This document shows positions 1-54,860 of a stretch of 64,000 nt of DNA, piece after piece (the first letter of the stretch is position 1; every line of letters begins with the position of its first letter). Below the pieces are notes generated by a model that saw only the letters and a program-made list of their open reading frames with translations, ran no database searches and had not been told where the DNA came from. The stretch lies in assembly GCA_903813345.2 (NCBI GenBank), contig CAIIXF020000001.1:15810001-15874000 (forward strand). The letters are read 5' to 3'. A program made the translations under genes and the position numbers. Origin of the DNA: Owenia fusiformis (taxonomy: Eukaryota).

Positions 1-649
1 TTATATAACTGTTTTTGTTAACATTTTTGGTTTTTGCTCCTTTCTACCAATTCTTGAGAATGAAATTAAATGTCTTTCTGAACCTTGTTGGAACAAAATA
101 ACATATACAACATGTTTTTAGACCTCTCAATATTATAGTTATACATGTACAAAGGAATTTTTGGTTGGAAAAAAAGTATTCAAAAAATTAAAACAAAATC
201 CCCAAAAATAGAAAAAATCAAGATAAACCTTTTATTTCATTAACAAGATACTTTTTAAAATCAACCAAAATTTTCTTTGTAGTAATTACAATATTGAGAG
301 ACCTAAACATGTTGTGTTTATGTCGTTTTGTTCCAATGAGGTTCGGAAAGATGTTTCATTTCACTCTGGAAACATGATGCCAAGAACAAAACAAGTGTTT
401 GATGTGTTTTCTAAAACAATATAGATGAAAGTTAATATATATTTTTCAAATTATATTGTTACCATTCAAAACATGACCATTAAATTGACGATGTGTTAAA
501 TTTTAAACTTGACATCAAATACGCCGTGGCAACTAATTTAAACAAGAAGGAGTGGCAGAATTTTTTAACATTATGTGTGCCCCATCATTATATAACAATT
601 ATATATTGGTATCATATCTTTTGCTAGTGAGACATATTTGACTTGCGAA

Positions 650-1700
650 CATTTTCAGTTTGACCACTCACCAAAGACCACAAGGTCAAACTGACAGATC
701 ACACTAGGTCAAATTGACAGATAATCTAAGGCCAGTATAGGTCAATCTGACCAATCGTCTTAGACCGCTAGGTCAAACTGAGAGACCTCTTGGTCAAACC
801 AACCTATCTTCTAAAACAAAAATATCAAATCAATCATATATCTAAGTCCACTAGCTCAAATTGATAAGTTCAAACTAACCAATCCTTTAAGACCACAAGG
901 TAAATCTGATCATACACCTTACCCTGCGTGCAGAGTCTAGTTAAACTACACTCTGCCTAGTAGAGACCATATTACAGTTTAGTAGCCCCGCCCCCACGAC
1001 GGGTACCGCCTTGTACCGGTGACAGTTAAGGTAAATCACTTTTGACCTACGCGCTGACCTTACACCAATCAGCGAGCTTGAAAACATACGCCAAATGCGT
1101 TCTAATTAAATATGCGCATGTCATTGGTCAATTCCGGGCTCACTGATGACGTCAGAAGGAATGACCATACAAAGAACGTCGGTCAAATTTGGCCGACGAA
1201 CACTGATTGGCGCGGTGAGTTCACAGGTTTATTTTAGTTTGAAAGAGTGAAGACGAAGCTCTCTTTTAAGAAGTGAAGTCAAACGAATGCAAAGGGTACA
1301 TACACCTATGATCTTTAAGCTAAACTGACCAAATTTTTCACTACTTTAGGTTAAACTGACATATTGCCTCAACCATTAGGTCAAACTGACCATCTAGGAT
1401 CACAAGGTCAAACTGATTTTCAAGAGTCGCTAGGTAAGACTACTGGGTCAAACTGACTAACTAGGATCAGGGAAACAAGGTCAAATCAAACCATCTAGGA
1501 TCACTAGGTCAGACCAACCATCTAGGATCACTAGGTCAAACTGACCCCCTAGGATCACTAGGTCAAACTGACCCCCTAGGATCACTAGGTCAAACTGACC
1601 ATCTAGGATCACTAGGTCAAACTGATCATCTAGGATCACTAGGTTAAACTGACTGGTTAAGATCACAAGGTCAAACTGGTTATATAGGTCAAACTGACAT
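650..1700 (+). repeat. 27-bp minisatellite (GGTCAAACTGACCATCTAGGATCACTA), degenerate 5' part, continues at ~2575-2670
   Basis: Near-perfect tandem copies at 1500-1700; explains the 9-aa periodic ORF 1481..1720; interrupted by MITE insertions. Confidence 0.9.
920..1298. mobile_element. Non-autonomous DNA element with TACCCT...AGGGTA termini and 9-bp TSD
   Basis: CATACACCT at 911-919 and 1299-1307 flanks the element; related copies at 58390-58461, 39516-39558 and ~60985-61024. Confidence 0.85.
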
Positions 1701-1704
1701 ATTA

Positions 1705-2557
1705 GAGAGATTTCGCACATAAGTGAAAGTACAACTTATACGTATACGTATAGTTTAAAGGGTCATGTCGAACTATTATATTTACTAAAATCAATTTTAA
1801 ATTGTACTTCATGGAACATAACTATTCTGTTATAGAAAAGCTCCATCAACTAGAGACTGTGAATGCACTGTCATCTGCATGTGTAGATTATGCACATTAT
1901 AATTAAATGCTTGCTTCCGTGTCCTAGTTGTTGTAGTGTATTATAAACACGATTCTTTAAAGTGAGTCATGATTCTTTAAAGTGAGTCATTACATAAACA
2001 AGTTGATTATTTCAATGTTTTCATGATCAGTATAAGTTCAGTGAACTTACAAAACAGTATATTTACGTAGATGATAACGTATACAGTTGGTTCTCCGTAT
2101 AAAAATTTGCTTACATGTGTGTGGAACAATTGACCGCAAGCATTTTTTGAAATTAATTGGCTGAGTGGGAACAGTATCCAATCAAATACTTTAACCATCA
2201 ATTTGAAACACCAATCAAACCAGTAGGTTCTAGCAATTCCTGGAAACGACCCATTAGCTCAACATATGACATACAGGGTGTTTCATAACGAGCATCTCCA
2301 AAAGTCAATTTGAGAAGAGACGGTTCTATAAAATATGTACTATATATGAGCCTATTTTATTCTAGACAAACACATTTGGATCAACTAAACATGCTACAAT
2401 TCAAGAAAGTACAAATGGCATCCCTTTGACCTGTATTTATTACAGTCCGAGAAGATCTTTCCTGACGAAAAGCCCACATTATGAAACACCTTGTACGTTT
2501 ACCTATAAGTATAAGTATACGTTATAAGTTGTAATTTCACTAGGTGCGAAATCTCTC
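1705..2557. mobile_element. MITE with ~45-bp TIRs (GAGAGATTTCGCA...)
   Basis: ATTAGAGAGATTTCGCA at 1701 and TGCGAAATCTCTCTAAT ending 2561; TA/TAA flanks; splits the 27-bp minisatellite. Confidence 0.8.
2274..2493. mobile_element. Tc1/mariner-type MITE nested in the preceding MITE
   Basis: TA-CAGGGTGTTTCATAA ... TTATGAAACACCTTG-TA. Confidence 0.75.
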
Positions 2558-2780
2558 TAATGCCTTCGAATATTAGTTCAAACTGACCATCTAGGATCAC
2601 TAGGTCAGACCAACCATCCAGGATCACTAGGTCAAACTGACCACCTAGGATCACTAGGTCAAGCTGACTAATTAGTTAATACCATCACTAAAACTGAGAC
2701 TCATTTTAAGAACAGAATCAGATAATTGATAACCCAAATAAAAAGTAAATGTATAATTGTATGTCAGTGGTATTCTATAT

Positions 2781-3784
2781 TATTATCCCACCGAACGAAA
2801 TTCGAGGGGGATATAGGAAATTCGTCCGTCCGTTCGTCTGTCCGTTCATCCGTCTCTCCGGGCAATTACTCAAATACCGGTTGGCGGATTTGATTCAAAT
2901 GTTATAGGCTAGGCTTATGCCTTATGAAGGTAGGACTTCTGCTCGAGAAGGAATTTTCAATATGGCTGCTTAATTAAAAATGGCGGCCATTTTTCGGAAA
3001 AAATATAATCTTTGATAACTCAAATACTAGGGGATGGATTTGGTTCAAATTTTACATGCACTATATTTCAAAATGGCCGCCATTTTTTGTAAAAAAGACA
3101 TAATCTTCGTTAACTCAAATACTATTGAATGGATTTGGTTCAAATTTTACATGCTGATGCCTAGGGACATAGGATTTTCAAGATGGCAGCTTAATTTCAA
3201 AATGGCCACCATTTTTCGTAAAAGAACGTAACCTTTGATAACTCAAATACCAGTTGACGGATTTGGTTCAAATTCTATATGCTGATGGATTTGGTTCCAA
3301 TTTTATATGCTGATATCTAGGGAAAATGGAGATCTGCTTCAGAAGAAAGGCGTCAACTGAATTTCAAAATGGCTGCCATTTTTCATAAAAAAGGTAATCT
3401 TTGATAACTCAAATACCAGTGGACAGATTTACTTCAAATTTGATATACAGATGCCTAGAGATAGAGGAGCTCTGCTTGAAAAGTAAGTTTCAAGGTGGCT
3501 GCAATTCATCGAAATCTCCGCCACTTTTCATCCTTGATGTCTCACATACCAGTTGACGGATTTGGATTAAATTTTATTTGCTGATGCCTTGAGACCTAGG
3601 AGCTCTGAAATCTAAAGATGACAGCTGAATTTCAAAATGGCAACCATGTTTCATAAAAACATAATCTTTGATCACTCAATTACCAGTGGATGGATTTGGC
3701 TCAAATTTTATATGGCCGCTATTTATCAAAACATGTTTTGTTCGGTGGGATTTGCTACTCTGTGGAGTTGCTGTTTTTCTAGTT
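2781..3784 (+). mobile_element. Helentron-associated non-autonomous element (HINE/DINE-1-like)
   Basis: Subterminal IR ATCCCACCGAAC (2785) / GTTCGGTGGGAT (3740), (CCGT)n microsatellite, internal tandem units, 3' end CTAGTT. Confidence 0.75.
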
Positions 3785-3816: not shown

Positions 3817-6800
3817 GGCTGCACGCCAGAGAGAGCAAAGGGAGCAATGGGAACACAAACAGCAAGAAGGTGGTGAGTCCCCAGGGAAGTCTCGAGATAA
3901 CTGGAGGGACAACAGACCAGATAGACCTAGAGACTCAGACAACAGAAACTGGAGGGATAAGCAAGGTGCATAAATATGAAGTTATTAATTATTTTAGATG
4001 GTTTATCATAGTAGCCCGGACAGAATTGTTCAATGGTCACTTTTTCTTTAATAACTTTTTTAATTTTCAATATTATCAAAATCTGATTACATATTTGAAA
4101 ACTAGAGTGAAATTCTGACATACAAAATTAATTTGTTGATTTTAAAGGCATTTAATTCATAATATGTGTGACACAAATACATAATTCACCATATTGCCTC
4201 ATATTTGACATATATGGCAGCATATTTCGTTAATTTCAATGTTCTGTTGAGAGTTAATATTTGAAGATTGTCGGAGGCCTATAAGGTCATGCTGCCACCT
4301 TTACAATCCTGATGTAATGCAGCATTGACTAATCATCAATACAAGAGACATCCCTCCTCCAAGGGTCTATGAAGTCAACTCTATTGAAATGTTCGGGGTT
4401 GTGTTCAAGAGAATGTGAAAAGGTGGCGCCCCAATGTGCGGGGTGTGATGAGAATAGGTCCTCAGTCTTTTCAAAAGCTCAAACAGCCATCTCAGAGGCC
4501 ATTGAAAAGCTGAAGAACAATTCACATGCATGTCAAGGATCGGCTTAAGAGGAGTTTGACTGGAAAGACATTAAAAACTGTGGCAGTATGACCCTATAAT
4601 TGCATGGGTTAAACGAACTAGGGTTGCTGGTCCACTTTGGGTAACAATGGAATGGCCAAAAACTTTAAATCCTGCAACCCCAACCAATATACTGTACATA
4701 TAAAATGTACAAACCTTTTGAGTACATGTAGCGGTATACATACAAGTCAATTTAAAACAAGGTTTTAAATGCAGTCATTACCTCATACCAATGCAGCAGT
4801 CCATATGACTTTGTAGGCCTATGAGGTTTCATAAATATTAATTTTCAAATGAACATTCAAATCCACAAAACATGCCTCCATTTTTGAACAAATATGAGAC
4901 AAAATGGTGAATTATGTATTTGCGTCACTCATACTATGAATGCCTATAAAATCAAAAAATTAAGAGATGTTCCTTAAATATTTTTTTGTATGTCAGAATT
5001 TCACTCTAGTTTTCAAATATGTAATCAGATTTTGATAATACTGAAAATTAATAAAAAAGTTATTAAAGAAAAAGTGACCATTGAACAATTCTGTCCGGGC
5101 TACTATATTCTTTTAATGATTATTATTGTGTGAGCATGGTGAGAAATTACTACTCTTTTGTTCTTTTTACAGGTAAGAAATTATTCATATCGAATTATTT
5201 TCTGATCAAAATCTTAATGATGAAAAAATGATTCAATTCTTTGTCATTAACATAAAGGGATTTAATGTAATCTTTGTATTATACAAATTTGTATTACTTG
5301 TGCTTTAAATTGCATGTATTTGCTGTTATCCTGTTTAGTACAACCATCTGTTTTGAACTTTTGAGAGAGTTTGAATAAATGGTGTTCTTTCAGGAACTGA
5401 AGCGCGACCAATACCAAAAACTGGTAACCATGGTTCTCAATCCCCAGCCTCCACACCATCTCGTGGTGAACGAACCTACTACGGCAGCTCTAGTGGGCAG
5501 TCCCCTGTGTACGTAGCCCCCTCTAGCGGCGCCCAGGTTGTCTATAGCAATCCAAGACAGGTACTACAAGGACAACCTGGGCCATCTAGCAATCAACACT
5601 CTTTTATTCTAAATTGACTGCTTGACTCATGCATCCAATCTTAAATACAATTCTGTAGAATAAAGAATAACACCTTTTAGTCTATTCCCTTTTAACAAGT
5701 TAGCATAAATAACACATAATCTCAATTGAACCTTTTAAATGGTCCACTCTGAAACACGTGTGACAATCTGAACTTCAATATGTGACTGTCTGAAGTTTCA
5801 TTTCTTGTCAATTCAAACCTTAAAAGATTGGGGATATATGAAATATTTTAGGACTGTAAAAAGTTTGATAATCTTGATTTTTATATTGCCTTTATGTGTT
5901 CATCTATACTGTATCTAAGAGTGATGATTGGAAAGTTGGTGGCTAGATAAGTAACTAATGTATATTGTATAAACTATAAGTTAATAATTAAGGAATAAAT
6001 AAGGTTAAATTTGTATGTGTGGGTATTTATCTTTACAAATGAGAACTTATCACAGTATATAGCAGCCAGAGTAATTCATAACATGCCTCCTTTAAATATT
6101 TAGCACCTTAATTAAATATTGCACTTGATACCAAACTAAATGAACAGTAGACATGGGTGACCTTATGAAATGTTACTGGCCCACACATACTTCTGTTTCA
6201 GATTTATATAATCTTATTCCAATTATTTTCAATCATTAATAGTACTTTGTATCAAGTTAGCAAGTGAAATAATAACCTCATGTTGAAAGTGAAACTTTAT
6301 TCCAGGCCCAAATTCAAGCAAGTCTTTTTCAACAAATCCAAGGGTGGGAGCCAAGCCAAGCCAGCTTCACCACAGAACAAAGGCAAGGGCAAGCAAAATA
6401 CACCCAGTCAGCAAGCAAACAAGGCCAGTTCAGCCAGTCCCAACAACAAGCAAGGCCCAGTCAATCACCAGGCATATCAAGGCCAGGCCAGTCACCAATC
6501 CAAGCCCAGTTCAGCCACTCACCGGGACAAGCAACATTCATCCAGGGGCAAGTCCACTACACCCAAGGCCAAGGCAAAAACATCCAAGGACAACTCCAGA
6601 ACAATCAGTCAAGACCCCTAAGTCAACATATTTCTCAGATTCCAGGACCCATCTCAAGACAACCTTATACTCAATGTAGTCCACAATCAGACTTGCTAGT
6701 GTTCACACCCCCAAAGTCATCCACCTTCCAATCATCTACCAGTAACAATACACAGTCTTTGATGGATATTAGAATACCCCAACCACAGAGGTACTCAAAC

Positions 6801-9568: not shown

Positions 9569-10508
9569 CAGTACATTGAGGCAACACATCAACCACAAAA
9601 TGATACTTGAAATATTGTACAGTACATTGAGGCAATACGTCAAGCACAATGTAACAATTGAGACAATGTACATTACATTGAGGCATTACATCAAGCACAA
9701 TGTAACATTTGAGACAATGTACAGTACATTGAGGCAATACATCAAGCACAATGTAACACTTGAGACAATGTACAGTACATTGAGGGAATACATCAAGCAC
9801 AATGTAACACTTTGAAACAATGTACAGTACATTGAGGCAATACATCAAGCACAATGTAACAATTGAGACAATGTACATTACATTGAGGCATTACATCAAG
9901 CACAATGTAACATTTGAGACAATGTACAGTACATTGAGGGAATACATCAAGCACAATTTAACACTTGAGACAATGTACAGTACATTGAGGGAATACATCA
10001 AGCACAATGTAACACTTTGAAACAATGTACAGTACATTGAGGCAATACATCAAGCACAATGTAACACTTGAGACAATGTACAGTACATTGAGGCAATACG
10101 TCAAGCACAATGTAACAATTGAGACAATGTACATTACATTGAGGCATAACATCAAGCACAATGTAACAATTGAGACATTGCACAGTACATTGAGGCAATA
10201 CATCAAGCACAATGTAACACTTGAGACAATGTACAGTACATTGAGGGAATACATCAAGCACAATGTAACACTTTGAAACAATGTACAGTACATTGAGGCA
10301 ATACATCAACCACCATGTAACACTTTGAAACAATGTACAGTACATTGAGGGAATACATCAAGCACAATGTAACACTTTGAAACAATGTACAGTACATTGA
10401 GGGAATACATCAAACACAATGTAACAATTGAGACATTGCACAGTACATTGAGGCAATACATCAAGCACAATGTAACACTTGAGACAATGTACAGTACATT
10501 GAGGCAAT
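9569..10508 (+). repeat. 51/52-bp minisatellite, ~18 copies
   Basis: Unit CAGTACATTGAGGCAATACATCAAGCACAATGTAACACTTGAGACAATGTA; explains the 17-aa periodic ORFs. Confidence 0.95.
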
Positions 10509-20475: not shown

Positions 20476-22340
20476 TGTTGTCGCCAGAATTACACCACCA
20501 AAAAGTGGTGACATATTGTTATAGTCTCCGTCTACAAGTTTTCATCTACAAGTTTTCACATGTTCAATTCTGACTTTTTATTTAAGATTTGACCTTCAGA
20601 GACTCTGGAGGCTCTTCAAGGTCTCTGAAGGTCAACTCTTAAATAAAGTCTTAAATAAAAAGTCAAGGTAAAAAAGGTCTAAAAGGTATTTTTCAACTTG
20701 CTTCAAGTTGACCAATTTTTTCAAAATTATCTACAAGTTATCAGAAGTTCAAATTTGACTTTAGATTTGAGCTTCATTGACCTTCTCAAGATCAAAAAAA
20801 GTCAAAAAGGTCTTTTTTGACTTGCTTCAAATTGACCAATTTTTCGAAATCATCTACAAGTTATCAGAAATTCAAATCTGACCTGAAATTTGAAATTTGA
20901 CCTTCATTGTCCTTCTCAAGGTCATAAAAGGTCAAAAAGGTATTTTTCAACTTGTTTCAAATTGACCAATTTTTTCCAATCAAATTGACCAATTTTTTTT
21001 CAAAATCATCTACAAGTTAACAGAAGTTTAAATCTGACTTTAGATTTGAGATTTGACCAAATAAATAGTACCGTGGGTACTGGGATCACATGGTGATGCT
21101 CTGAAGTGAATGATGGCTAAAATCGCAGAAAAAACGAATATTTTTTGCCGATTTTTTGTAACAAAATTATTTCATACAACTACTCTTTACAGTGACATGG
21201 CTAGCTTTTTACATTGCAGGACACCTGAAATTATTTGTAAAGCTAGGAAATGGGCCAAAAGTGAATTTCACGAGACAAAAATGGCGACCATTTTGAAAAT
21301 ATGTAGATTTTAAACCAGGAGTCATAGGGGAGTTTTCTGTATTGATGTTGGAAAAAAATTACTTGAAACGGGAATCCTATCGACAGAGGTTTAAGGCAAA
21401 TGGTCCAAAAGTGGATTTCGCGAGACAGATGGACAAATCAATGTTAAAGAGGTAATCAGGTATAGCGAGCAGGCTAAACAAAAAATTGTTTCAATTTTAG
21501 AATATTTTTGGCTCACGTCATTCCTTATCATGTCTATTTTCTAAAAATCACAAAAGTGCATACTTTATTCCAGGAAAACTAAAGATTTTTACAATAATGT
21601 ATTATTTTTCTATGATTTGGGAGAATTTAAACATTTTTTTACATTTTTTAACTAAAATGGCTGAAAATAAAAAACGGATATGATTTTTTATCGATTTTTT
21701 GTAACAAAATTATTTCATACAACTACTCTTTACAGTGACATGGCTTTTTTACAATGCAGGATACCTGAAGTTATTGGTAAAGCTAGGAAATGGGGCAAAA
21801 GTGTATTTCGCGAGACAAAAACGGCGACCATTTTGCAAATAGGCAAGCTTTTGAACCTGGAGTCATAGGGGAGTTTTTTGTATTGATGTTGAACAAAAAT
21901 AACTTAAAACGAGAATCCTATCGACACGGGATTTAAAGCAAATGGTCCATAGTTTTTTTTTTAATATTGATGTTGAATAAAAGTAACTTAAAACGGGATC
22001 GATTCCTTTTGACCGAGGTTTTAAAATGGGCCAATTGTTGACAGACGGACGTAATTTGTTGCTGCTGCATCAGTGTCTTCATTCATTTTCTTCTTTCTTC
22101 TTCCTTTTTCTTGATTTGATTGTTGTCTTGATTTGATTCTTCAGGGTCGGACGGACAGACAGACTGACAAGTGAATGATTGCAATAGCTCACCATGTGAG
22201 CTAAAATGTCGAACATGTATTTTTTCAACTTGCTTCAAATTGTCCAATTTTTTTTCAAAATCATCTACAAGTTATCAGAAGTTAAAATCTGACTTTAGAA
22301 TTGAGATTTGACCTTCATTGACCTTCTCAAGGTCAAAGGA
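20476..22340 (+). mobile_element. HINE-like repeat (TTGACC/GGTCAA-rich units), related to the arms of the 47.5-54.3 kb element
   Basis: Tandem units TTCAACTTGCTTCAAATTGACCAA...ATCATCTACAAG shared with 53.2-54.2 kb. Confidence 0.65.
21058..22206 (-). mobile_element. Second HINE nested in opposite orientation
   Basis: Palindrome TAGCTCACCATGTGAGCTA at ~22186 next to (GACA/GACG)n; subTIR TCACATGGTGA and hairpin AGTACCGTGGGTACT at ~21067; internal duplication 21110-21410 / 21655-21950. Confidence 0.7.
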
Positions 22341-23325
22341 TTGTTATATAGTGGTCGCCCCCCTTCCTTGCCCTCCCATATCTATCTTCATTCTAGCCCT
22401 AATTTGTCCAGAGTTAATTTTAGCTTCATAGACAACATTTAACAAGGCATTAACATGACGAAATATCACTACCTAGTTGATCACAATATTATTGTAGATG
22501 GTTTTGAAAAATGGTCAATTTGAAGCAAGTTGAAAAAAGACCCTTAATTTAACCATGAAAATGTCGTTGAAGGTGGAATCTCAAATCTAAAGTCAGATTT
22601 GAACTTCTGAGAACTTGTAGATGATTATATATTAGATTAGATGATGGTAACCGTCTCGATATGATCATCAATTTATCATATAATAGTACTTGTACCTAAT
22701 TCCCCATTAGGACCATTGGATCGATCACTTAACCAGTGAACTTTTTTCAAGTGTAATGTTTACCAGCCACTGCTACATTTTGAAATATTTGTTGACGTAC
22801 CATAGTGGTCTGAAATTTTTATATTCCTGAAATTGAGACCCAGTAATGGTCGGACAGTCGGTGAGTGAGTGCAAAAATATGAATAAATAGAAGTATAGAT
22901 AAAAATTTAAGGAGTACTTTATATTTATATTATGGACATTCCAGTGATACAATGTACTCTTAATTGCAAAAATTTACATTAGGTTTATCGATAGGTATTT
23001 GTCGTCGAATTGAATAAATAAGTTATCTTGCACAAGTAAGGTAAATCAAATGACGAGTGTTATGATAGCATTTGAGGCTATTTATGAAACATTTGACATG
23101 GAAGATATTGATTATCTGGTAAATCATGTTTATTGTATTTTATTTATATAGCGATTAGAAAGTATCGATCACTATACATGTAAAAACAGCAGCTCTCCGT
23201 AGCTGATAGCACAATAGCAAACATTAAAAATAAATATAAATTAAGACTAATTAAAATTGAGCGCATCAGGAAAGGGGATTTTTAAAATAGAAACATCGTT
23301 TTGTTAAAGAACGGAGTGAATAGTC

Positions 23326-46584: not shown

Positions 46585-47785
46585 GTTCGATTTAACAATT
46601 GTGTTTATCAAACTTGTGCCTTCTATTCAGATCTCGTCATGTTTTCAAGGCAATGCCCATTAATCAACACACAATGGCAGACAATAATCAGTTGTGAGGA
46701 AACAACGAATAACTAAAGTCATATAGAATCCCAAACATTCCAAATGTGGGAACAATTTTATATATTGTAGGTTAGATTCAATTTCGGCATGTATTATTGA
46801 AATAGTATTTAACGAGATTAACCTAAAGTTGATCGTATTTAAAAATGTGCAAAACAATGAGCTTTGTATGGTAAGGTACTTATCCATTTCAAGCCAATTG
46901 GTATAGGGGTATCTTACAATAGGGTAACTTAGTTGTCAAGGATTAATAATTGCCAAATCTTATCAAAATCAACCAATGATAGGTAAATATATATTTAAAT
47001 TTTCTTTAAAAGTGTGCAATAAGAAACATGAGATTGTTACAACCCAAGTATAGTATAAACTAAAACAATAACACATACAGGTATAAATAAAATAAATTCG
47101 TTTTATTTGATCATGTGCTTCTAGGATTGATCAAATTAGATAATAAGCAATAATGACTAATACTTTTGTAAAGTCAGCAGTTTTACCACCAAAGCCATAG
47201 AGAAAACACCAGTCATACGAGGGTTGATCATGAACTTCTCATAATATCTCTCTAATTTCTTTCCTTGATATTCTAATGCATCCAGCAAAAATATATTGAA
47301 TAACAGGAATATTTATTGATGTAAATAAAAAAATGTGTTATAATGCCTCACATTAACCATGTTTAAATACATGAGAAGTTTCTAAATAAGATACTAGTAC
47401 CAAATAATCAAATGTCAAATAATGTGTTGTTTTAACTATATGCAATGAAGATGGGAATTTTGTGATGTCATAAACGTTGTTTGTTTTATTAGGAGGCCCC
47501 ATCGGGGGGCCTCCTATCAATTTTGTAGATATTATTCTTTATTATTATTATTCTTTATTATTTATTCTTCCTCCCTCTTTTTCTCCTACTTCCAACTACC
47601 TTTCAACTAGGTACTACATAGTCCTACTAGGGACCTGGGCTGAACTTGGCGGGAAAGGAATTTTTATCTAGGTCAAGGTCAAAGGTCAAAATCTAGGTCA
47701 AATCTTAGTTTTTTTCAAGTTTCTCAAATCCTGACACTACACTTAAATATTTTTGGCTCATATCGAGATTTTAGCGTCATTTTAC

Positions 47786-47882
47786 CACGTGCTTTTAAAC
47801 CTATTGTTATTGTCACGTGATTCCGCTGATCCAATAGCGTTACAGTAATCGAGTACTAAAACGTCCGCGCGAGGTTTTATAA
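47786..47882 (+). promoter_or_regulatory. Probable Pol II promoter of the chromodomain gene
   Basis: Two CACGTG boxes (47786, 47814), CCAAT (47831) and TATA-like TTTTATAAG (~47875-83), ~40 nt upstream of ATG 47919. Confidence 0.5.
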
Positions 47883-47918
47883 GTCGCGCCAAATCTTGTT
47901 TACAGTGTAAACCAGATC

Positions 47919-50107
47919 ATGAAAACAAGAGGAGTGCGAGTAGATTTCCTGTCTTATTTTCAAAACAAAGCGGATATTAGGCCCAGTAAAATTAAATTAT
48001 TATCCTACTCTGATGAGTACGATGTAGATCGTATCATAACAAAGGTAAGTTATGTCACGTTTCTTTGATGAATGGTACATTTCATTCAGATTTATGAGAT
48101 TGAAATCAAACACAGAATTGGACTTGAAGTTGAAATGATGCAGAAATCATTCAAATCATAATTTGACAGTTGATAAAATAGAATTAGATTTAGCCGCATA
48201 CAGTTTGGACGATAAATAAATGATAAACAATGGATGGTGGTTTGAAAGTCTATAGTTTGCAATCGTCTACGTCTGGCTATCCACTATATTTTACATTTTG
48301 TATACTCTCATCTAGGCTATTGATGTATGGTTGGCCTCTTCAGTGAAAATTCCCAATTATTTTTAACATGTGAAATCCTTACTTCAGCAAATCCACAATT
48401 TATTATTTATCGTTCGAACTATACTAGTATATAGGTAGATTGGCGCCCCAGGAATCTGTGCATTGTTCATTTAGCTTAGCATTCATCAATGAAATCGTGT
48501 AGCCCACCTTTGACAAATAGTCTGGTTTTCCTTTTTCAGTCAACTAGTAAAGGTTATCTAGTAAAGTGGAAGGGATTCAGCCTTTGGGATAGTACGTGGG
48601 AGCCCTTAAACAGCAGATGCTCCAGCACATTTGAATACATATACAGGTATACATTCGACCTCCATATGATTTTACATAAACATTGTCAAAGCCCATTATG
48701 AGACTTTTTAACAGTTTCAATTCAGTCTGAATTAATATTTTTCTGCAAAGTTTTGGCGAGCCAGTTGCCTCGCATACATAGGCCTATTGTATACCCAATA
48801 GCCACTGTCATAGAGTCAAGTTGTTTGTCCAGTGCCCGTCCAGTGGCATCAAATCAGACTTGAAATTGTTTGGAAGCAATATTTTCAAAAAGCAACTTTG
48901 TTAATGTTTGTAATGATCCAAATGAATTAGGCCTTCAGTTGAGATGTCTAATGGAAAACTTTAATGAATTAATAATTGATTAATTAAGTGCCTACCAAAG
49001 AAAACAGCCTCAGATATCTAAAAAAATTTTAATGTCAGGTGATTGGTACAGGTTCTCCGAGCGTTGATCGAAGATATACATGTCAAAGTTTACTCTATCG
49101 ATATGTGAACCTTACGTTCGATATGTTTCAGATACCCAGTTGTAAACAACGAACTTATCCAATCAAACACAGACAACCTACTTTTTGTTATAAGGGAGAG
49201 GCTAGGCAAAAGGACGGGGAGGTGTGGCCTTGTGGCATTTCGACACGATGTGTTTCGTCATTTGTTTGGACGTAAGTAAAGATCAAAATATAGAAGTGTA
49301 CGGATACAATATACTGTAAACCCAGAAACGAAACATACAGTATTGGGAATAGCTAATTGGGAATCAACTCAATTCTTTTATAATTTAGAACTAGACGGCT
49401 GTAATTAATAATACTGACCACCCAGATAATTACATATATTCTTTGTACAATATTCATATTAATTGTATAATGCAACATACTAGTATATCTCATCGTGTTC
49501 GTCACATTATTCAGTACATTGGACAGTCCCTGGCCATGAATTCATCCAGGACATAAGTACCCTTCTTAAATGAATTTTATTCTTCGAAACCCTTGCCTAT
49601 TTTTGAATAGTATGGCAATCATAGGCATTACATTTATGGATCATCAGCTTAATAAAAAAGTATACAGTCAGTTTGCCCAATACAACTGAGGGCCGCACAA
49701 CCTATAAGATATTGAACTCTGTCTTGACATTACCTACAGTATGTCAAATTGATCTCTATGTTAACATCATCAATATGGCATTGATCTTTGTGTTAACATC
49801 ATATATATAACAATGGATCTCCATGTTAACATCATATTCACCTATCTATATAACATACTAAAGTGTAATGTATATTAAATACAATTTTGTTTTAATTCCA
49901 GTGGAGAAAACCAGGCTGTTCAGCAGAGAGGATTTTGAACATTTGAACTTTCCAGATTGCTGGGACCAGTTTAAAGGTGAACGGTCCGGACGCAAGATTA
50001 GCTTTCCAATGAGAATGACTTTAAAAGTGAAATTTTGTAAGGGACATCCTATGCCATATGAAGCAATTGACATTGAATTCGTCACAGAAAGATTTTCTAC
50101 TATCTAG
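47919..50107 (+). CDS. Chromodomain protein, 192 aa, 4 exons
   Basis: Exons 47919-48044, 48540-48646, 49132-49271, 49902-50107 (579 nt, GT/AG, in frame): ...DEYDVDRIITK-STSKGYLVKWKGFSLWDSTWEP..., then an unknown C-terminal domain (FRHDVFRHLFG...FPDCWDQF). Confidence 0.8.
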
Positions 50108-50147
50108 TTTACAAGTTTATCAGTAGAGAATTATGAATCCATCATAG

Positions 50148-52328
50148 TTGTCATTATTATCTCAAACTCAAACGCTAATTTTAATTATGGTCACAGTTGA
50201 GGTTATACATGGCAAGGGCCAGTCAAGTTTTCTTCTAACAAACTTTGAGCTTTGCCAAATAAAAATGGAAGAAGATTCAAACGAAAAACTCAATATGATT
50301 GACATAATAAATAATAATCTCCCAAAATCATGCGTTAAAATCAACCCCATGTCGGAAAGACTCCTGGCTAATCTTAGATTACGGGCAATGGTTGCGAAGT
50401 CAGAAATACGCAAATCCTCTGGAAGAGGAAAATATGCCATAAGCAGGAAAGTTAAAGAAATTATCGTCTTTGATTCGGAATTCGAGAATATCGCAGAGCT
50501 TTATAGTGAAATAGTCAATGAAAAGAAAAAAATGAAAGATATGAACATCTTTATGAAAGTTATATTGTCCGAAAAAGACGAACTCCAAAACAATTTCGAT
50601 CGCCTTATAACTGCACTTGACATAAAAGAAAACAAAGGTAAAAAGATAAACAACGTTAACTCTGCTACCAACCGGTTCAAGAAACAAATAATCATAGAAA
50701 ATTGCAGGAAAGCTCTGTGGTTTACTGAGTCATTTGGACTTACGGTCGATCGGGTACAGTGTTTAGACCAATCGGGTAATGAGTACACTCTAAGGCTAAT
50801 TTCTCAAAAAACGTATGAAACCTTAACCGAAAATGAAAAAGATGGTCTCAGGGGCTTATTACATGTCCTGGACAGATTTGGTATTTCTGATCATGCGTAT
50901 CATGAACTGTCAATGCATTTCCCGGAGATCACAAAGGTGCGTGTAGTCAAAAATATGCGGACAGAGTTGAACGACACAATCGTAATTAACGAGACACCAG
51001 GGGACCTCGCAGGAGCACAACTTAACTTTCAGGACACACTGACGAAATTGATCGATTCAAAATATGCAAAAAACTACGAACTGAGCTCCTCAACCGTGCC
51101 CGTTAGAATTAAATGGTCGTGCGATGGCGCAAAAGTTTCCAACAACAAAAACTTTATCATCGTAAATGTAGGACTTCTAGATCACGACATCATGTCTTTG
51201 GAGGGGAATGAAACTATAGCTATAGTAGAGGGGCCAGAAACGTACCAAACGCTTAAAATATCCCTTGCCGATCTATTTCGCGAAATCAATACACTTGAAA
51301 AAACAAAAGAATTCATATCTTCATCTGGCAGGGTTTATAAGACTGCACTTTTTCTAGGCGGTGATATGAAATTCCTGCTCCAAGTATTAGGTCTCAACGC
51401 CGCTAATGCGAAGTATGCGTGTTTCTCTTGTCCGGCAAGCAAGACTGATTTTTTAGACATGACATTGCCAGAGGAATTCTGGGATAACAAGATGCGAGAC
51501 GTGAACTCTCTTGCTGAACTTTCAAAGAAAAGGGCAATGGGAAGCATAGCTGAACCCCTTCTTTTGATCCCTATTGAGAGAGTAATGATGTGCGAACTTC
51601 ACTTACTGCTTAGAGTAATCGATATTTTGCTTAGAAATCTCATAATGGATGCCCTCAGCGTGGATGAAAAGGTACGTATTCTCGAAGGTCGTGGAAAGAG
51701 CACAAATTTGATCGGTGATACTACGAAAAATCTTGTTACAGTAATACAATCATGCGGGGTCTCTTTCAATATTTGGCCTAAAACCTCAAAATCAGAATCT
51801 AAAGGAGACCAGAAGACAGCCCTCGACTGGACAAGCCTGACAGGCAATCAGGTTAAAGTACTACTTCGAACATTGCCAACGAAACTCGAGCAATCCGATA
51901 TAAAGATCAGTGAAAAAATCCACATAATATCGCTTTGGAAAAAATTTGGGAATCTGTACTTTAATGTGATCAGTAATCGTTATCCAGCGGAGGAACAGGT
52001 TGTCAATTTTTTCGTGAATGCGCGAAGTTGGGCAAAGGAATTCTTAGGCCTCCAATCTAAACTAGAAGGTTACGATAGAGTAACACCTTACATCCACTGT
52101 TTGGTGTACCATACGCCTCGTGTTATTAAAAGGTATGGTAGCCTTAAAATCTTTACAGGGCAGGGTGTAGAAAAGTCCAATGATGATATCAAATCACTCT
52201 ATCATAGGAAAACCCAAAAACATAAACCATCCGTAGAAGCGCTACGTGTACGAACAAGGAAATCAATGACTGCACCATACGCTAGGAAGACGCGCAGATG
52301 GAAAAAACAAAAGCCCAAGTATAACTGA
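50148..52328 (+). CDS. RAG1/Transib-like DDE transposase, intact ORF (true start uncertain)
   Basis: KWSCDG (cf. RAG1 KESCDG, D600), GGDMK (GYDEK, D708), YACFSC (YICTLC), ELH (ALH), TPYIHCLVYH (TNYFHKTLAH), QGVEKSN (EGNESGN, E962), in the correct order. Confidence 0.85.
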   Translation: MSLLSQTQTLILIMVTVEVIHGKGQSSFLLTNFELCQIKMEEDSNEKLNMIDIINNNLPKSCVKINPMSERLLANLRLRAMVAKSEIRKSSGRGKYAISRKVKEIIVFDSEFENIAELYSEIVNEKKKMKDMNIFMKVILSEKDELQNNFDRLITALDIKENKGKKINNVNSATNRFKKQIIIENCRKALWFTESFGLTVDRVQCLDQSGNEYTLRLISQKTYETLTENEKDGLRGLLHVLDRFGISDHAYHELSMHFPEITKVRVVKNMRTELNDTIVINETPGDLAGAQLNFQDTLTKLIDSKYAKNYELSSSTVPVRIKWSCDGAKVSNNKNFIIVNVGLLDHDIMSLEGNETIAIVEGPETYQTLKISLADLFREINTLEKTKEFISSSGRVYKTALFLGGDMKFLLQVLGLNAANAKYACFSCPASKTDFLDMTLPEEFWDNKMRDVNSLAELSKKRAMGSIAEPLLLIPIERVMMCELHLLLRVIDILLRNLIMDALSVDEKVRILEGRGKSTNLIGDTTKNLVTVIQSCGVSFNIWPKTSKSESKGDQKTALDWTSLTGNQVKVLLRTLPTKLEQSDIKISEKIHIISLWKKFGNLYFNVISNRYPAEEQVVNFFVNARSWAKEFLGLQSKLEGYDRVTPYIHCLVYHTPRVIKRYGSLKIFTGQGVEKSNDDIKSLYHRKTQKHKPSVEALRVRTRKSMTAPYARKTRRWKKQKPKYN

Positions 52329-54860
52329 AATATAAATTATATTGTTTCCGAGAGCTATGGTGAATTGTAAAATTAATCAATTCATACCTCTCTTATACAC
52401 TATTTATCTTTCACTTAAGCATGGGCCATTTTTCATGATTCGCGCATCGTTCTAGCGTATGGGGCAGTCTTATGACTGGCTATATAAACTGGAAAATAAA
52501 TAAATTTAAATTAATCAACTCCTCCAGTAGAGAAAATGAAAAGAACATCGTTGCAACTTACAGTGTTAAATAAGTTGTATTATGAATAAAGTACGTTATA
52601 ATTAAACATGTTAAATGTGTGACGTTTTAGCTATTTATTGTTGGAAAACGGCGTCGTATTTCAAAAACGACCTTACTTGTAACTTGTCAGGAAGAAAAGT
52701 TATTAAATGTGGTGTAAATAAAATATGTTAATATAAACGTATTAGTCGTGTTCTTTCATTTCCAACCCTGAGCTAACGATTTAAAAGAATATTAAAGGCA
52801 AAAATTACATTTGTATAACGCCAATTTCGCCATTTTTGCACTTTTTTCAGATCGGTTACATGTAAAGTATAGGAATTTTTGCCAAAAAACTGTTTTTTCT
52901 GGGGGAAGAAAATATTTTCATAGTTGATCGTCAATTTTTTGCACAGTTGACCTTTGTTAATATCTTCACCATTTCTAACCCTGAGCTAATGGATCAATTT
53001 AACATTTATTTAATTATTTGATATTCAATTTTGTCCTATATGGACATCCCATTAGAATTCTGCAATGATGCATGCGTGACATCACATTATGTTAATTAGC
53101 AAATGACGTCAAAATCTCGATATGTGAATCTTTGCACACAGATAGATATTAGTATTCTATTAGTCTTAGCCTTTTGCCGTCTAGAGAAATTTTGCCTAGA
53201 TTTTGAGATATTGAAGGTCAAAAAAAGGTCAAAAAAGGTCTTTTTTCAACTTGCTTCAAATTGACCAAATTTTTTTTAAAACTCATCTACAAGTTCTCAG
53301 GATTCCAAATCTAACCTTACTTTTGACCTTTGACCTTTGGTTGACCTTCAGTTACCTCCGAAAGGTCAAAAAAGTTGATTTTTCAAATCGATTTTCTGGA
53401 TTCAAATTTAGGTATATTTATTCACAAAAGATCTTCTGAGGTCTAAAAAAGTAAAATTTGCAAGGTCAAAGGTCAAGGTCATCAAACGAAATCACAAACT
53501 GTGTTTTCTAAGTTTCTCAAAATTGGAGACTACAAATCAATTTTTTTTACTGAAAGTCAGAATATATATTTCTCTAAAGGTTCTACACATATTAGCAATT
53601 GACTATTTATTAAAATTTTGCTCCAGTTTTGAGATATTAGAACTCAAAAACTGAAAAAAGGTCAAATTTCAAAATTTTTCAAGGTCAAATTTCAACTTGC
53701 TCTAAATTGACCAAACTTTTTTTTAAAAAGCATCTACAAGATCTCAGGAACTCAAATATGACCTTAGTTTTGAACTATGACCTTTAGTTGACCTTCAGTG
53801 ACCTTCGAAAGGTCAAAAAAGTTAATTTTTCAAATTGATTTTATGGATTCAAATTTAGGTTTCTTCAATCAGAAAAGATATACTGAGGTCTAAAAAAGTA
53901 AAACCTGTAAGGTCAAAGGTCAAGGTCATCAAACAAGATCACAAACTGTGTTTTCTAAGTTTCTCAAAGTTTGTGACTACAAATCAATATTTTTGAATTA
54001 AAGTCAGGATATATATTCCTCTAAAGGTTTTACACATAATAACAATTGATAATCTATTAAAATTCTGCACCAGTTTTGAGATATTGGACCTCAAAAACTG
54101 AAAAAGGTCTAATGTTGAAATTTTTCAAGGTCAAATTTCACATTGCTTCAAATTGACCAAACTTTTTTTTAAAAATCATCTACAAGATGCCTGGAGTTCA
54201 TATATGTCCTTGTATTTAAGATTTGACCTTTGGCTGACCTTTAAATGTTCAAAAAAGCCTACAGGGCCTCCGTAAGATTGCTTGCAATCTTCTAGTTAAT
54301 GTTAGACTTATGAATGTTTTGACAAATATCCAGAGGAAAGTTCATTTTTGCAACTCCAATTCCTTATCAATATATTTCTTGTAGACGTCTGGTATCTCAA
54401 TTCTAATGAAACAAGTAAACTAACCTACAATATAACATCATTCACTTGATGATTTTGACGTACAAGCTAACACTTAATGTACATGCAAGCACGTAAATGT
54501 TTTTGATGACTTATGTGATAACTTATTTGATAGGTTATTATGTATATAAACCTGGTTAGTTAGGGTCATTCCCATAATTACTTATTTGCCCAGGAGTTCC
54601 TTGATTTTGGTTATTATGGCAATTATTTCCAGTGAAATATTTCTGTTGTAATATATATATGTTTGCTGGATTAATGGGTCATTCTGCATATTATGTGAAG
54701 ATTTTATTAGAATATATTAAAAAATAAAGAAAATAGAGAGATTTATGAGAGCTTTATGATCTACCGTCGTATAAGCATTTTATTAATGATTATGGATCGA
54801 TCATTCATATACACAAAAATATGTTAATTTTTCTTGTATGGTAGAATCATATTTTTCGTT

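Follow-up and report, generated by a model that had tools for sequence, protein, structure and literature searches.

A RAG1-fold DNA transposon of Owenia fusiformis that carries a gene for a predicted chromatin reader

Transib transposons are described as elements that encode a RAG1-like transposase of ~700 amino acids (aa) as their sole protein, produce target-site duplications (TSDs) of 5 bp and have CACAATG at their ends (PMC1131882). RAGL elements, which also make 5-bp TSDs, have added a convergently oriented RAG2L gene (PMC9435367; PMC10462144); in the pelagophyte element AanRAGL, the order is co-directional, with RAG2L upstream of RAG1L (PMC9435367). In this study, we analysed a window of 64,000 nt from the annelid Owenia fusiformis (assembly GCA_903813345.2, contig CAIIXF020000001.1, positions 15,810,001 to 15,874,000; all coordinates below count from the first letter of this window). 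At 47759..53124 on the plus strand, the window holds a 5,366-bp transposon with two genes: one for a transposase with the RAG1-core fold and, upstream of it, one for a small chromodomain protein, hereafter called the partner. An initial reading of this DNA (the original prediction) had placed such a two-component element at 47757–53126; the element is indeed there, but its true ends lie 2 nt inside those limits, at 47759 and 53124. To our knowledge, RAG2 and RAG2L have so far been the only partners of RAG1-type transposases. RAG2 reads H3K4me3 by means of its PHD finger, and the chromodomains of HP1, CDY and Polycomb proteins read marks of the H3K9me/K27me type. On balance, we favor the view that the locus represents a separate branch of the RAG1/Transib superfamily of transposons that has its own chromatin-reader accessory protein.

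The transposase is encoded without introns. Its open reading frame (ORF; 50148..52328, plus strand) spans 726 codons from stop to stop, and the first ATG, at 50187, gives a protein of 713 aa (P0001; 50187..52328). Among 8,000 scored candidates, 24 relatives of P0001 were found at an expectation value (E) of 0.001 or better, the closest being 42% identical; those bearing species names come from Pinctada imbricata, Mytilus edulis, Desmophyllum pertusum and Tubulanus polymorphus, and none has a recorded Pfam domain. In an alignment of 22 homologues, D313, D393, C412 and C415 are invariant, while H637, H642 and E662 are present in at least 90% of the sequences. When P0001 is aligned pairwise with RAG1, these catalytic and zinc-binding motifs fall opposite those of RAG1. 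The spacing is 19 residues from D393 to C412 and 20 from H642 to E662; we take the corresponding pairs in mouse RAG1 to be D708–C727 and H942–E962, which are spaced identically. Both the uninterrupted 726-codon frame and the RAG1-core order of its D/D/E and CxxC..H..H motifs had been read correctly in the original prediction, the motifs being confirmed by the 22-homologue alignment as well as by the alignment to RAG1.

Sequence comparison with the RAG1 family gave modest scores. P0001 reaches 16.7 bits (E 0.0021) against the Pfam RAG1 family (PF12940), below the cut-off of 25; three of the 22 homologues match this family at E ≤ 0.01, none of them over the cut-off. The best E value of P0001 against RAG1 chains in the PDB is 7.8e-4. 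A profile built from the 22 homologues retrieved 16 PDB sequences at E ≤ 0.01, and all 16 were RAG1 or amphioxus RAG1L (best E 5.3e-6; BbRAG1L, 1.5e-4); HzTransib was missed by this profile even at E 10. We also examined the predicted structure of P0001. The AlphaFold (AF2) model had a predicted local distance difference test score (pLDDT) of 85 and a predicted template-modelling score (pTM) of 0.67, and a Foldseek search with it returned mouse RAG1 (E 3.1e-14), BbRAGL (9.5e-11) and HzTransib (4.2e-10). In VIA-align, model residues 216–704 superposed on RAG1 residues 460–1008 with a Z-score of 27.3 and a root-mean-square deviation of 3.4 over 439 residues, at ~15% identity. The Z-scores for BbRAGL and HzTransib were 24.4 and 22.3 (the latter over 409 residues), and the matched part of the model spans residues ~213–707 overall; the next-best fold, that of the P element transposase, stood at Z 13.2. 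From this model, we regard it as established that P0001 adopts the RAG1-core fold from the dimerisation/DNA-binding domain through the C-terminal domain, and the RAG1/Transib fold, for which a structure prediction had been proposed as the check, is upheld by both Foldseek and VIA-align. The first ~210 residues comprise a small beta/alpha region and a long coiled coil, and they have no structural match.

Several other features of the transposase family were observed. A match to DUF1280 (PF06918) in 2 of the 22 homologues was dropped, as it fell below threshold and was partly coiled coil. A SAP-like tail, recognized by Rho_N matches, is present in P0005, P0007, P0008, P0011, P0012, P0014–P0019 and P0021 (alignment A1); the Mytilus homologue is named SAP domain-containing, and the tail is absent from P0001 and its mollusc relatives. 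N-terminal of the coiled coil, at about residues 79–82 of P0001 (A1 columns ~205–215), there is a conserved G-R-[KGQ]-[KR] motif, which by eye resembles the GRPR/K of the RAG1 nonamer-binding domain as given in PMC10462144. The closest transposase cluster (that of P0002) has 124 members, among them a Crassostrea/Magallana angulata protein, and one member occurs on 596 contigs; by this cluster size and contig count, the family is therefore abundant in oysters.

Both genes are enclosed within a single pair of terminal inverted repeats (TIRs) of 24 nt. The left TIR (47759..47782, plus strand) starts CATATCGAG, and the right one (53101..53124) lies on the minus strand; the two match at 22 of 24 positions, and their likeness is confined to those 24 nt. 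The first letters are CATATCGAGATTTT on both ends, such that the element starts with CAT. Repeat comparison yielded one TIR-grade pair in the real 11-kb region, vs. none in 40 of 40 mononucleotide shuffles.

Mobility of the element was assessed with two RNA runs and with the contigs of runs X1 and X2, mapped over 46800–53650. The boundaries 47759 and 53124 coincide exactly with the starts or ends of contigs from both X1 and X2, places at which element copies adjoin other flanks; in two X2 contigs, ~249 letters of different sequence stand to the left of 47759. The empty-site joint, 47757->53125, was covered by 20 and 19 reads in the two RNA runs and by one X1 and one X2 contig. In another X1 contig, position 48029 is followed, after one additional letter, by 52024; it represents a non-autonomous derivative that has lost the interior of the element and retains both ends. 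Two contigs from the interior, 1,538 and 1,772 nt long, depart from the window sequence at only 11 and 5 positions, respectively. Contig word depth, which by the tool's own warning is not a copy number, was 235–250 in the interior of the element and ~570–660 at both of its ends, vs. 46–53 at 46800–47028. The TIRs, the exact contig ends, the empty sites, the other flanks and the deletion derivative therefore mark a young, multi-copy cut-and-paste element. We conclude that the DNA transposon at 47759–53124, both of whose genes are intact, is autonomous, moves by cut and paste and has been active recently.

The insertion site and the ends of this transposon set it apart from its described relatives. 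With the element in place, the site reads GGC-T-[element]-T-GAATC, as against GGC-T-GAATC in the copies that lack it; the target duplication is therefore of one base or none, not five, in this single insertion, for which the empty sites are paralogous copies of a repeat. The RSS-like arrangement of a CACAATG heptamer, a spacer and an A-rich nonamer is absent from the element ends. The window has 33 heptamers of the form CACWRTG, about as many as the 34.4 expected by chance; none is located at the element ends.

The partner is encoded by four exons on the plus strand, which join in frame to specify 192 aa; every intron is bounded by GT..AG. Exon 1 (47919..48044) supplies the start codon, an N-terminal tail and the first strand of the chromodomain, including the cage residue Y34. 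Exon 2 (48540..48646) contains the chromodomain core with W52 and F55, and on its own matches Pfam Chromo with E 2.3e-6 and 27.8 bits (cut-off 25.1). The two halves of a conserved C-terminal domain (C-domain) are supplied by exon 3 (49132..49271) and exon 4 (49902..50107), which match a hidden Markov model (HMM) of the partner homologues with E values of 3.9e-15 and 4.1e-17; exon 4 also provides the stop codon. With exon 4 alone as the query, HMMER searched 1.84 billion representative proteins and found P0026, a 192-aa protein of Owenia fusiformis annotated as an unnamed protein product, whose residues 126–192 are a 100% match to the exon. The whole gene model equals P0026 except for I20L, and the base responsible (47976, A>C) is the letter present in the X1 and X2 contigs. 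The gene model is therefore independently supported, and with it the cleanly spliced 192-aa gene that had been proposed.

With regard to its domains, the partner is a chromodomain protein, as predicted originally, but it is also more than that. Over residues 36–71, the whole protein scores 29.2 bits with Pfam Chromo. The nearest solved chromodomains are those of CBX1 (E 2.2e-5), then CDYL, CBX5 and HP1, and Y34, W52 and F55 align opposite the aromatic-cage positions of CBX1. Judged from these alignments, the chromodomain is of the HP1/CDY type, and the predicted aromatic cage, which the original prediction had also noted, is intact. A Pfam scan of the partner, even to E 10, found Chromo only; neither a chromoshadow domain nor a Pc box nor a CDY catalytic domain was present. 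The second domain, overlooked at first, is the C-domain of ~115 aa (residues ~78–192), which matches no known family. When it was used to query the 1.84 billion representatives, two matches were returned: itself and one spurious hit. As a lone query, the Owenia partner matched only itself; its relatives emerged once the coral sequence from locus L001 (see below) had been added. A Foldseek search of the PDB with the partner model had no match at E ≤ 0.001, and a structure search of the ESM Atlas gave the partner's own cnidarian cluster at a template-modelling (TM) score of 0.67, with all others at TM ≤ 0.40. We conclude from these searches that the C-domain is a putative new protein family; the novelty is claimed for the family and not for the fold.

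Does the partner accompany related transposases elsewhere? The transposase alignment was compared with metagenome contigs, yielding 25 loci that form ~13 groups by DNA identity. The partner-bearing loci have transposases of only 28–36% identity. The clearest case is the coral locus L001. On the strand opposite to its transposase, tblastn with P0026 residues 71–185 matched 3804–3445 (28% identity, E 4e-6), and the chromodomain of P0026 matched 4185–4087. The homologue has three exons: the first ends in the first chromodomain strand, the second is the chromodomain core and the third (3804–3379) is the whole C-domain. The gene is thus convergent with the transposase (ORF 549–3140) and ends 240 nt beyond the stop of the latter. 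The second of its introns agrees with that of the window gene in both codon and phase: it is a phase-2 intron that interrupts the codon preceding a conserved tyrosine. The first, in phase 0, falls in the same chromodomain loop as its counterpart in the window. Directly outside partner exon 1 of L001, at 4637–4825, is a palindrome with 75-nt arms that are 85% complementary, which may be a miniature inverted-repeat transposable element (MITE) or the edge of the element.

Other loci display the pairing in both orientations. A C-domain also lies convergently downstream of the transposase in L012 and in L015/L019/L020, the latter three being one decayed element (98–99% identical, with two shared in-frame stops in the partner). 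The partner pieces of these three occur on the minus strand at L015 1482–1979, L019 1565–2047 and L020 1539–2021, and L009, L016, L021 and L025 are the same element. L014 is a deletion derivative of an L001-type element that has kept the chromodomain exon; at its junction, 2367, the equivalent of L001 2922–3942 (the transposase end and the C-domain exon) is deleted. In L007, a C-domain exon precedes the transposase co-directionally, with 9 nt between its end and the opening of the transposase frame; it matched exon 4 of the window with E 0.0022 in a search of 3,886 ORFs. L008 has a similar but weaker exon 164 nt upstream (E 0.22 with exon 4, 0.0052 with a four-sequence HMM). L007 and L008 represent two further lineages. 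In the exon 4 search, the eight best non-self matches were without exception ORFs adjoining a transposase. The transposases of the window, L007, L001 and L008 belong to different clades of an unrooted tree with 29 sequences. Among the metagenome elements, those of corals included, none had convincing TIRs; L001 and L011 resemble each other from L001:121 onward, and a right end to match was not found.

Databases of proteins contain further partner-type sequences. A profile of the C-domain (A2) matched 37 proteins at E ≤ 0.01 among 1,111 candidates, and 5 of these also have Chromo. The two domains are combined, among others, in a 221-aa protein of Dendronephthya gigantea, annotated as ‘chromobox protein homolog 8-like’, and in proteins from Acropora muricata and A. 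digitifera. The ESM Atlas has two mainly cnidarian clusters of partner-type proteins, with 98 and 96 members. The partner alignment has the common motif LF..DF...P..W...G...FP.[KR]M ... IE.I.I.F, and the cage residues are kept. By these homologies, the partner gene travels with transposases of the same branch in annelid and cnidarian DNA, in two orientations. Because it is common to cnidarian elements whose transposases are only ~30% identical, it is, on this comparative evidence, old in the transposon family and not a local oddity. The suggestion that this lineage had recruited a reader on its own was therefore not borne out, and the expectation that the two genes co-occur elsewhere in the same order held in part: the pairing recurs, but the order varies, being tail-to-tail in coral contigs.

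How does this element compare with known systems? Like Transib (HzTransib; PDB 6PQN, 6PQR and 6PQX), it moves by cut and paste, has short TIRs and encodes a ~700-aa transposase of RAG1-core fold, and the D/D/E triad and zinc ligands of Transib are also found in the window enzyme; unlike Transib, it has a second conserved gene, CAT ends and a duplication of 1 bp or none at the one site. With the RAGL/ProtoRAG elements (BbRAGL; PDB 6B40), it shares the presence of two genes around a RAG1-fold enzyme. The partner in its coral relatives is tail-to-tail with the transposase, as RAG2L is, and in the window it is upstream and co-directional, as in AanRAGL. However, the partner consists of a chromodomain and a small unknown domain rather than a kelch propeller with PHD; in addition, the enzyme falls under the Pfam RAG1 threshold, and the end sequence and the TSD (at one insertion) are different. 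Vertebrate RAG1–RAG2 has the same core fold and also associates the enzyme with a reader of histone methyl-lysine, but the predicted reader module here has another fold and, by family, would prefer silent rather than active marks; moreover, the window enzyme belongs to a mobile element, not to a host recombinase. The chromoviruses (Ty3/Gypsy) are likewise mobile elements that bear their own chromodomain, which in their case is fused to a retrotransposon integrase, whereas here it is in a separate protein of a DNA transposon. Finally, the closest chromodomains are those of HP1/CBX/CDY proteins: the cage can be aligned, and a coral homologue is annotated as chromobox protein homolog 8-like. In contrast to these host proteins, the partner lacks the chromoshadow domain, the Pc box and the CDY catalytic domain, has an unrelated C-domain and is encoded by a transposon-borne gene.

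In the broad sense, then, the window enzyme has the RAG1/Transib fold, in which an RNase H domain with a zinc-binding insertion stands between DDBD/PreR and CTD, and the D/D/E and CxxC/HxxxxH motifs, and it stays below the Pfam RAG1 threshold. Strict Transib features (a 5-bp TSD, as judged at one insertion, CACAATG ends and a single protein) are all lacking, as is the kelch/PHD partner that characterizes RAGL elements. No RAG2-like gene of that kind was seen in the element, in agreement with the original prediction, with short ORFs lying outside the Pfam scan; there are no other ORFs of at least 80 aa in the element, and any that reach 60 aa between the transposase stop and the right end are short. 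Because the Pfam threshold, the heptamer, the TSD (in one case) and the nature of the partner all differ, the element is filed separately: the best reading is that it is a deep, separate branch of the RAG1/Transib superfamily, neither Transib nor RAGL in the strict sense. We found no chromodomain partner of a RAG1/Transib-type transposase in the literature, which was searched exclusive of Repbase, Dfam and the supplements of RAGL surveys, and to that extent the supposition that the arrangement had not been described holds. The branch is apparently undescribed, though Repbase, Dfam or the RAGL supplements might list its transposases under another name.

The spacing of the two genes bears on their expression. 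As originally noted, they are co-oriented and 40 nt apart: the partner stop ends at 50107 and the transposase frame starts at 50148, with the ATG 79 nt past the stop. The small same-strand gaps in the window, L007 and L008 suggest a single transcription unit; in the head-to-tail form, both proteins are probably made from it. RNA reads over the element are thin (mean depth 0–2.9 per bin, with ~6 in 100 of each run read).

The small protein is quite probably an accessory factor of transposition. In the mechanism that we envision, the enzyme would excise and integrate the element in the RAG/Transib manner (nick-hairpin cleavage in those enzymes puts the hairpin on the flanking DNA and leaves the transposon ends blunt), the chromodomain would read methylated H3 tails of the H3K9me/K27me type and the C-domain would connect this reader to the transposase or to transposon DNA. 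One outcome could be insertion into silent, gene-poor chromatin, as with the chromodomain-bearing integrases of retrotransposons; Gao et al. (2008) reportedly found that the chromodomain of a chromovirus directs integration to heterochromatin. Alternatively, the chromatin state could license cleavage, in the way that RAG1 is licensed through the PHD finger of RAG2. Chromatin-directed targeting or licensing of this kind, in which H3K9me/K27me reading is coupled to contact of the C-domain with the enzyme or the DNA, is a plausible role, albeit one to which we give slightly less than even credence.

Several observations weigh against our preferred interpretation. A role of the partner in targeting or regulation is predicted by analogy to its family. 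The AF2 model of the partner, made from 17 sequences, is poor (pLDDT 55), and a prediction of the complex between the transposase and partner residues 30–192, run without alignments or controls, scored 0.00, which speaks neither for nor against contact. Insertion of the element into a repeat is a single case and constitutes no test of heterochromatin targeting. In the thin RNA data, no joints that skip the partner introns appeared at the listing threshold. Of the coral copies, L012, L015, L019 and L020 are in a decayed state, and profiles made independently of the loci in question recovered the L007 exon (with L007 excluded) and the L008 exon weakly (E 0.14 and 1.6, respectively). The partner was not detected in 9 of the ~13 groups. 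In four of these nine, the contigs end at the transposase; in the other five, one side or more was examined, and no partner was detected downstream in L005, L010 and L017/L023 or upstream in L002, L003, L005 and L013. Hence the partner is either not universal or too diverged to detect. Because the annelid and coral C-domains are only 28% identical, missed homologues are likely; loss is equally possible.

The main rival to targeting or licensing is that the partner serves as an anti-silencing or regulatory factor, which would occupy H3K9me/K27me on the element, compete with the HP1/Polycomb readers of the host and thereby keep the element expressed, with no need to contact the transposase. Accessory proteins with anti-silencing activity exist in other DNA transposons, namely VANC of the plant VANDAL elements. 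An HP1/CDY-type chromodomain with an intact cage suits this role, as does the lack of a chromoshadow or other known effector domain, and a conserved pairing fits any function that benefits the element. There is no direct counter-evidence, but the conserved C-domain would need a role; the tight head-to-tail coupling (79 nt in the window, 9 nt in L007) suggests joint dosage, which is equally compatible with this alternative. We consider it the less likely account, though one to be taken seriously. A different proposal, which we regard as improbable, is that the head-to-tail pair is a single gene from which alternative splicing yields a chromodomain–transposase fusion, the 192-aa product being one isoform. 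The genes are on the same strand with a tiny gap, and the phase-1 donor at 49271 could indeed be joined in the transposase frame after the AG at 50195–50196 (junction 49271->50197). However, such a frame match has a one-in-three chance of occurring, and the pyrimidine tract at the acceptor is poor. Moreover, none of the 22 aligned transposase homologues has a Chromo domain, the convergent genes of corals cannot be spliced together, the annotated Owenia protein ends at 192 aa and the joints listed for the RNA reads, whose depth is very low, do not include this one.

The remaining alternatives deny either the partner a function or the element its mobility. DNA transposons do capture pieces of host genes, and the closest solved chromodomains are those of the host proteins HP1 and CDY; the partner could accordingly be a captured fragment without a role in the life cycle of the transposon. 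Such a passenger, however, would hardly be expected as the same two-domain protein beside transposases of 28–36% identity in an annelid and in cnidarians, in two orientations, with a common intron position, kept cage residues and a conserved C-domain motif, nor would its C-domain be expected to lack relatives outside such elements (as noted, the 1.84 billion representatives contained itself and one spurious match). We deem this explanation very improbable. Even harder to credit is that the two genes are domesticated host genes and not part of a transposon. Both reading frames are intact, and the partner is annotated as an Owenia fusiformis gene, but the TIRs, the contigs that break at both ends, the empty sites, the other flanks and the deletion derivative all speak against domestication, as does the word depth of 235–250 vs. 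46–53 in neighboring sequence (again not a copy number).

Some structures within and around the element deserve mention. An imperfect palindrome straddles the transposase stop codon (52268–52469): its 28-nt arms, at 52268–52295 and 52442–52469, are 86% complementary and 146 nt apart, and X1 and X2 contigs break at 52480 and 52483. The left flank of the element (47487..47758) is part of a very high-copy repeat, with a word depth of ~2x10^5, and the right flank (53125..53650) is the same repeat, running into a tandem array of 447-bp units (53244–54188, 2.1 copies). Taken as a whole (47487–47758 and 53125–54241), the host repeat attains a contig word depth of up to ~1.4 million in X1 and is plentiful in the RNA reads; related pieces are found at 20663–20982 and 22203–22624. 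A 51-bp satellite at 9569–10508 (18 copies, 91% matches) is the source of most CACAATG matches in the window.

We return to the interpretation of the locus as a separate branch with its own reader. A more far-reaching version of it, which we offer as speculative and rather doubtful, holds that cnidarians, annelids, molluscs and nemerteans harbor a third major branch of the superfamily: a two-subunit system of enzyme and reader, directed to silent chromatin, with a stagger of 0–1 bp and convergent with RAG1–RAG2(PHD). For what reason and how many times RAG1-type transposases gained partners, and what a chromatin reader adds to them, are long-standing issues in research on how V(D)J recombination originated. 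The chromodomain-partnered family is a natural second experiment in this regard, featuring a RAG1-fold enzyme with an unrelated reader, from corals to annelids and in both gene orders. The element widens the known range of end sequences in the superfamily, and that of target-site duplications as well if the single case holds; the copy described here, intact and to all appearances active, could also be used as a tool. If targeting or licensing proves true, the partner would be functionally analogous to the PHD finger of RAG2 and to the chromodomain-bearing integrases of retrotransposons. The occurrence of the same pairing in coral DNA suggests that RAG1-type enzymes have been joined with chromatin readers more than once. 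Were the third-branch version true, the coupling of a RAG1-type nuclease to a chromatin reader would have arisen at least two times, and it would be a general solution rather than a vertebrate accident.

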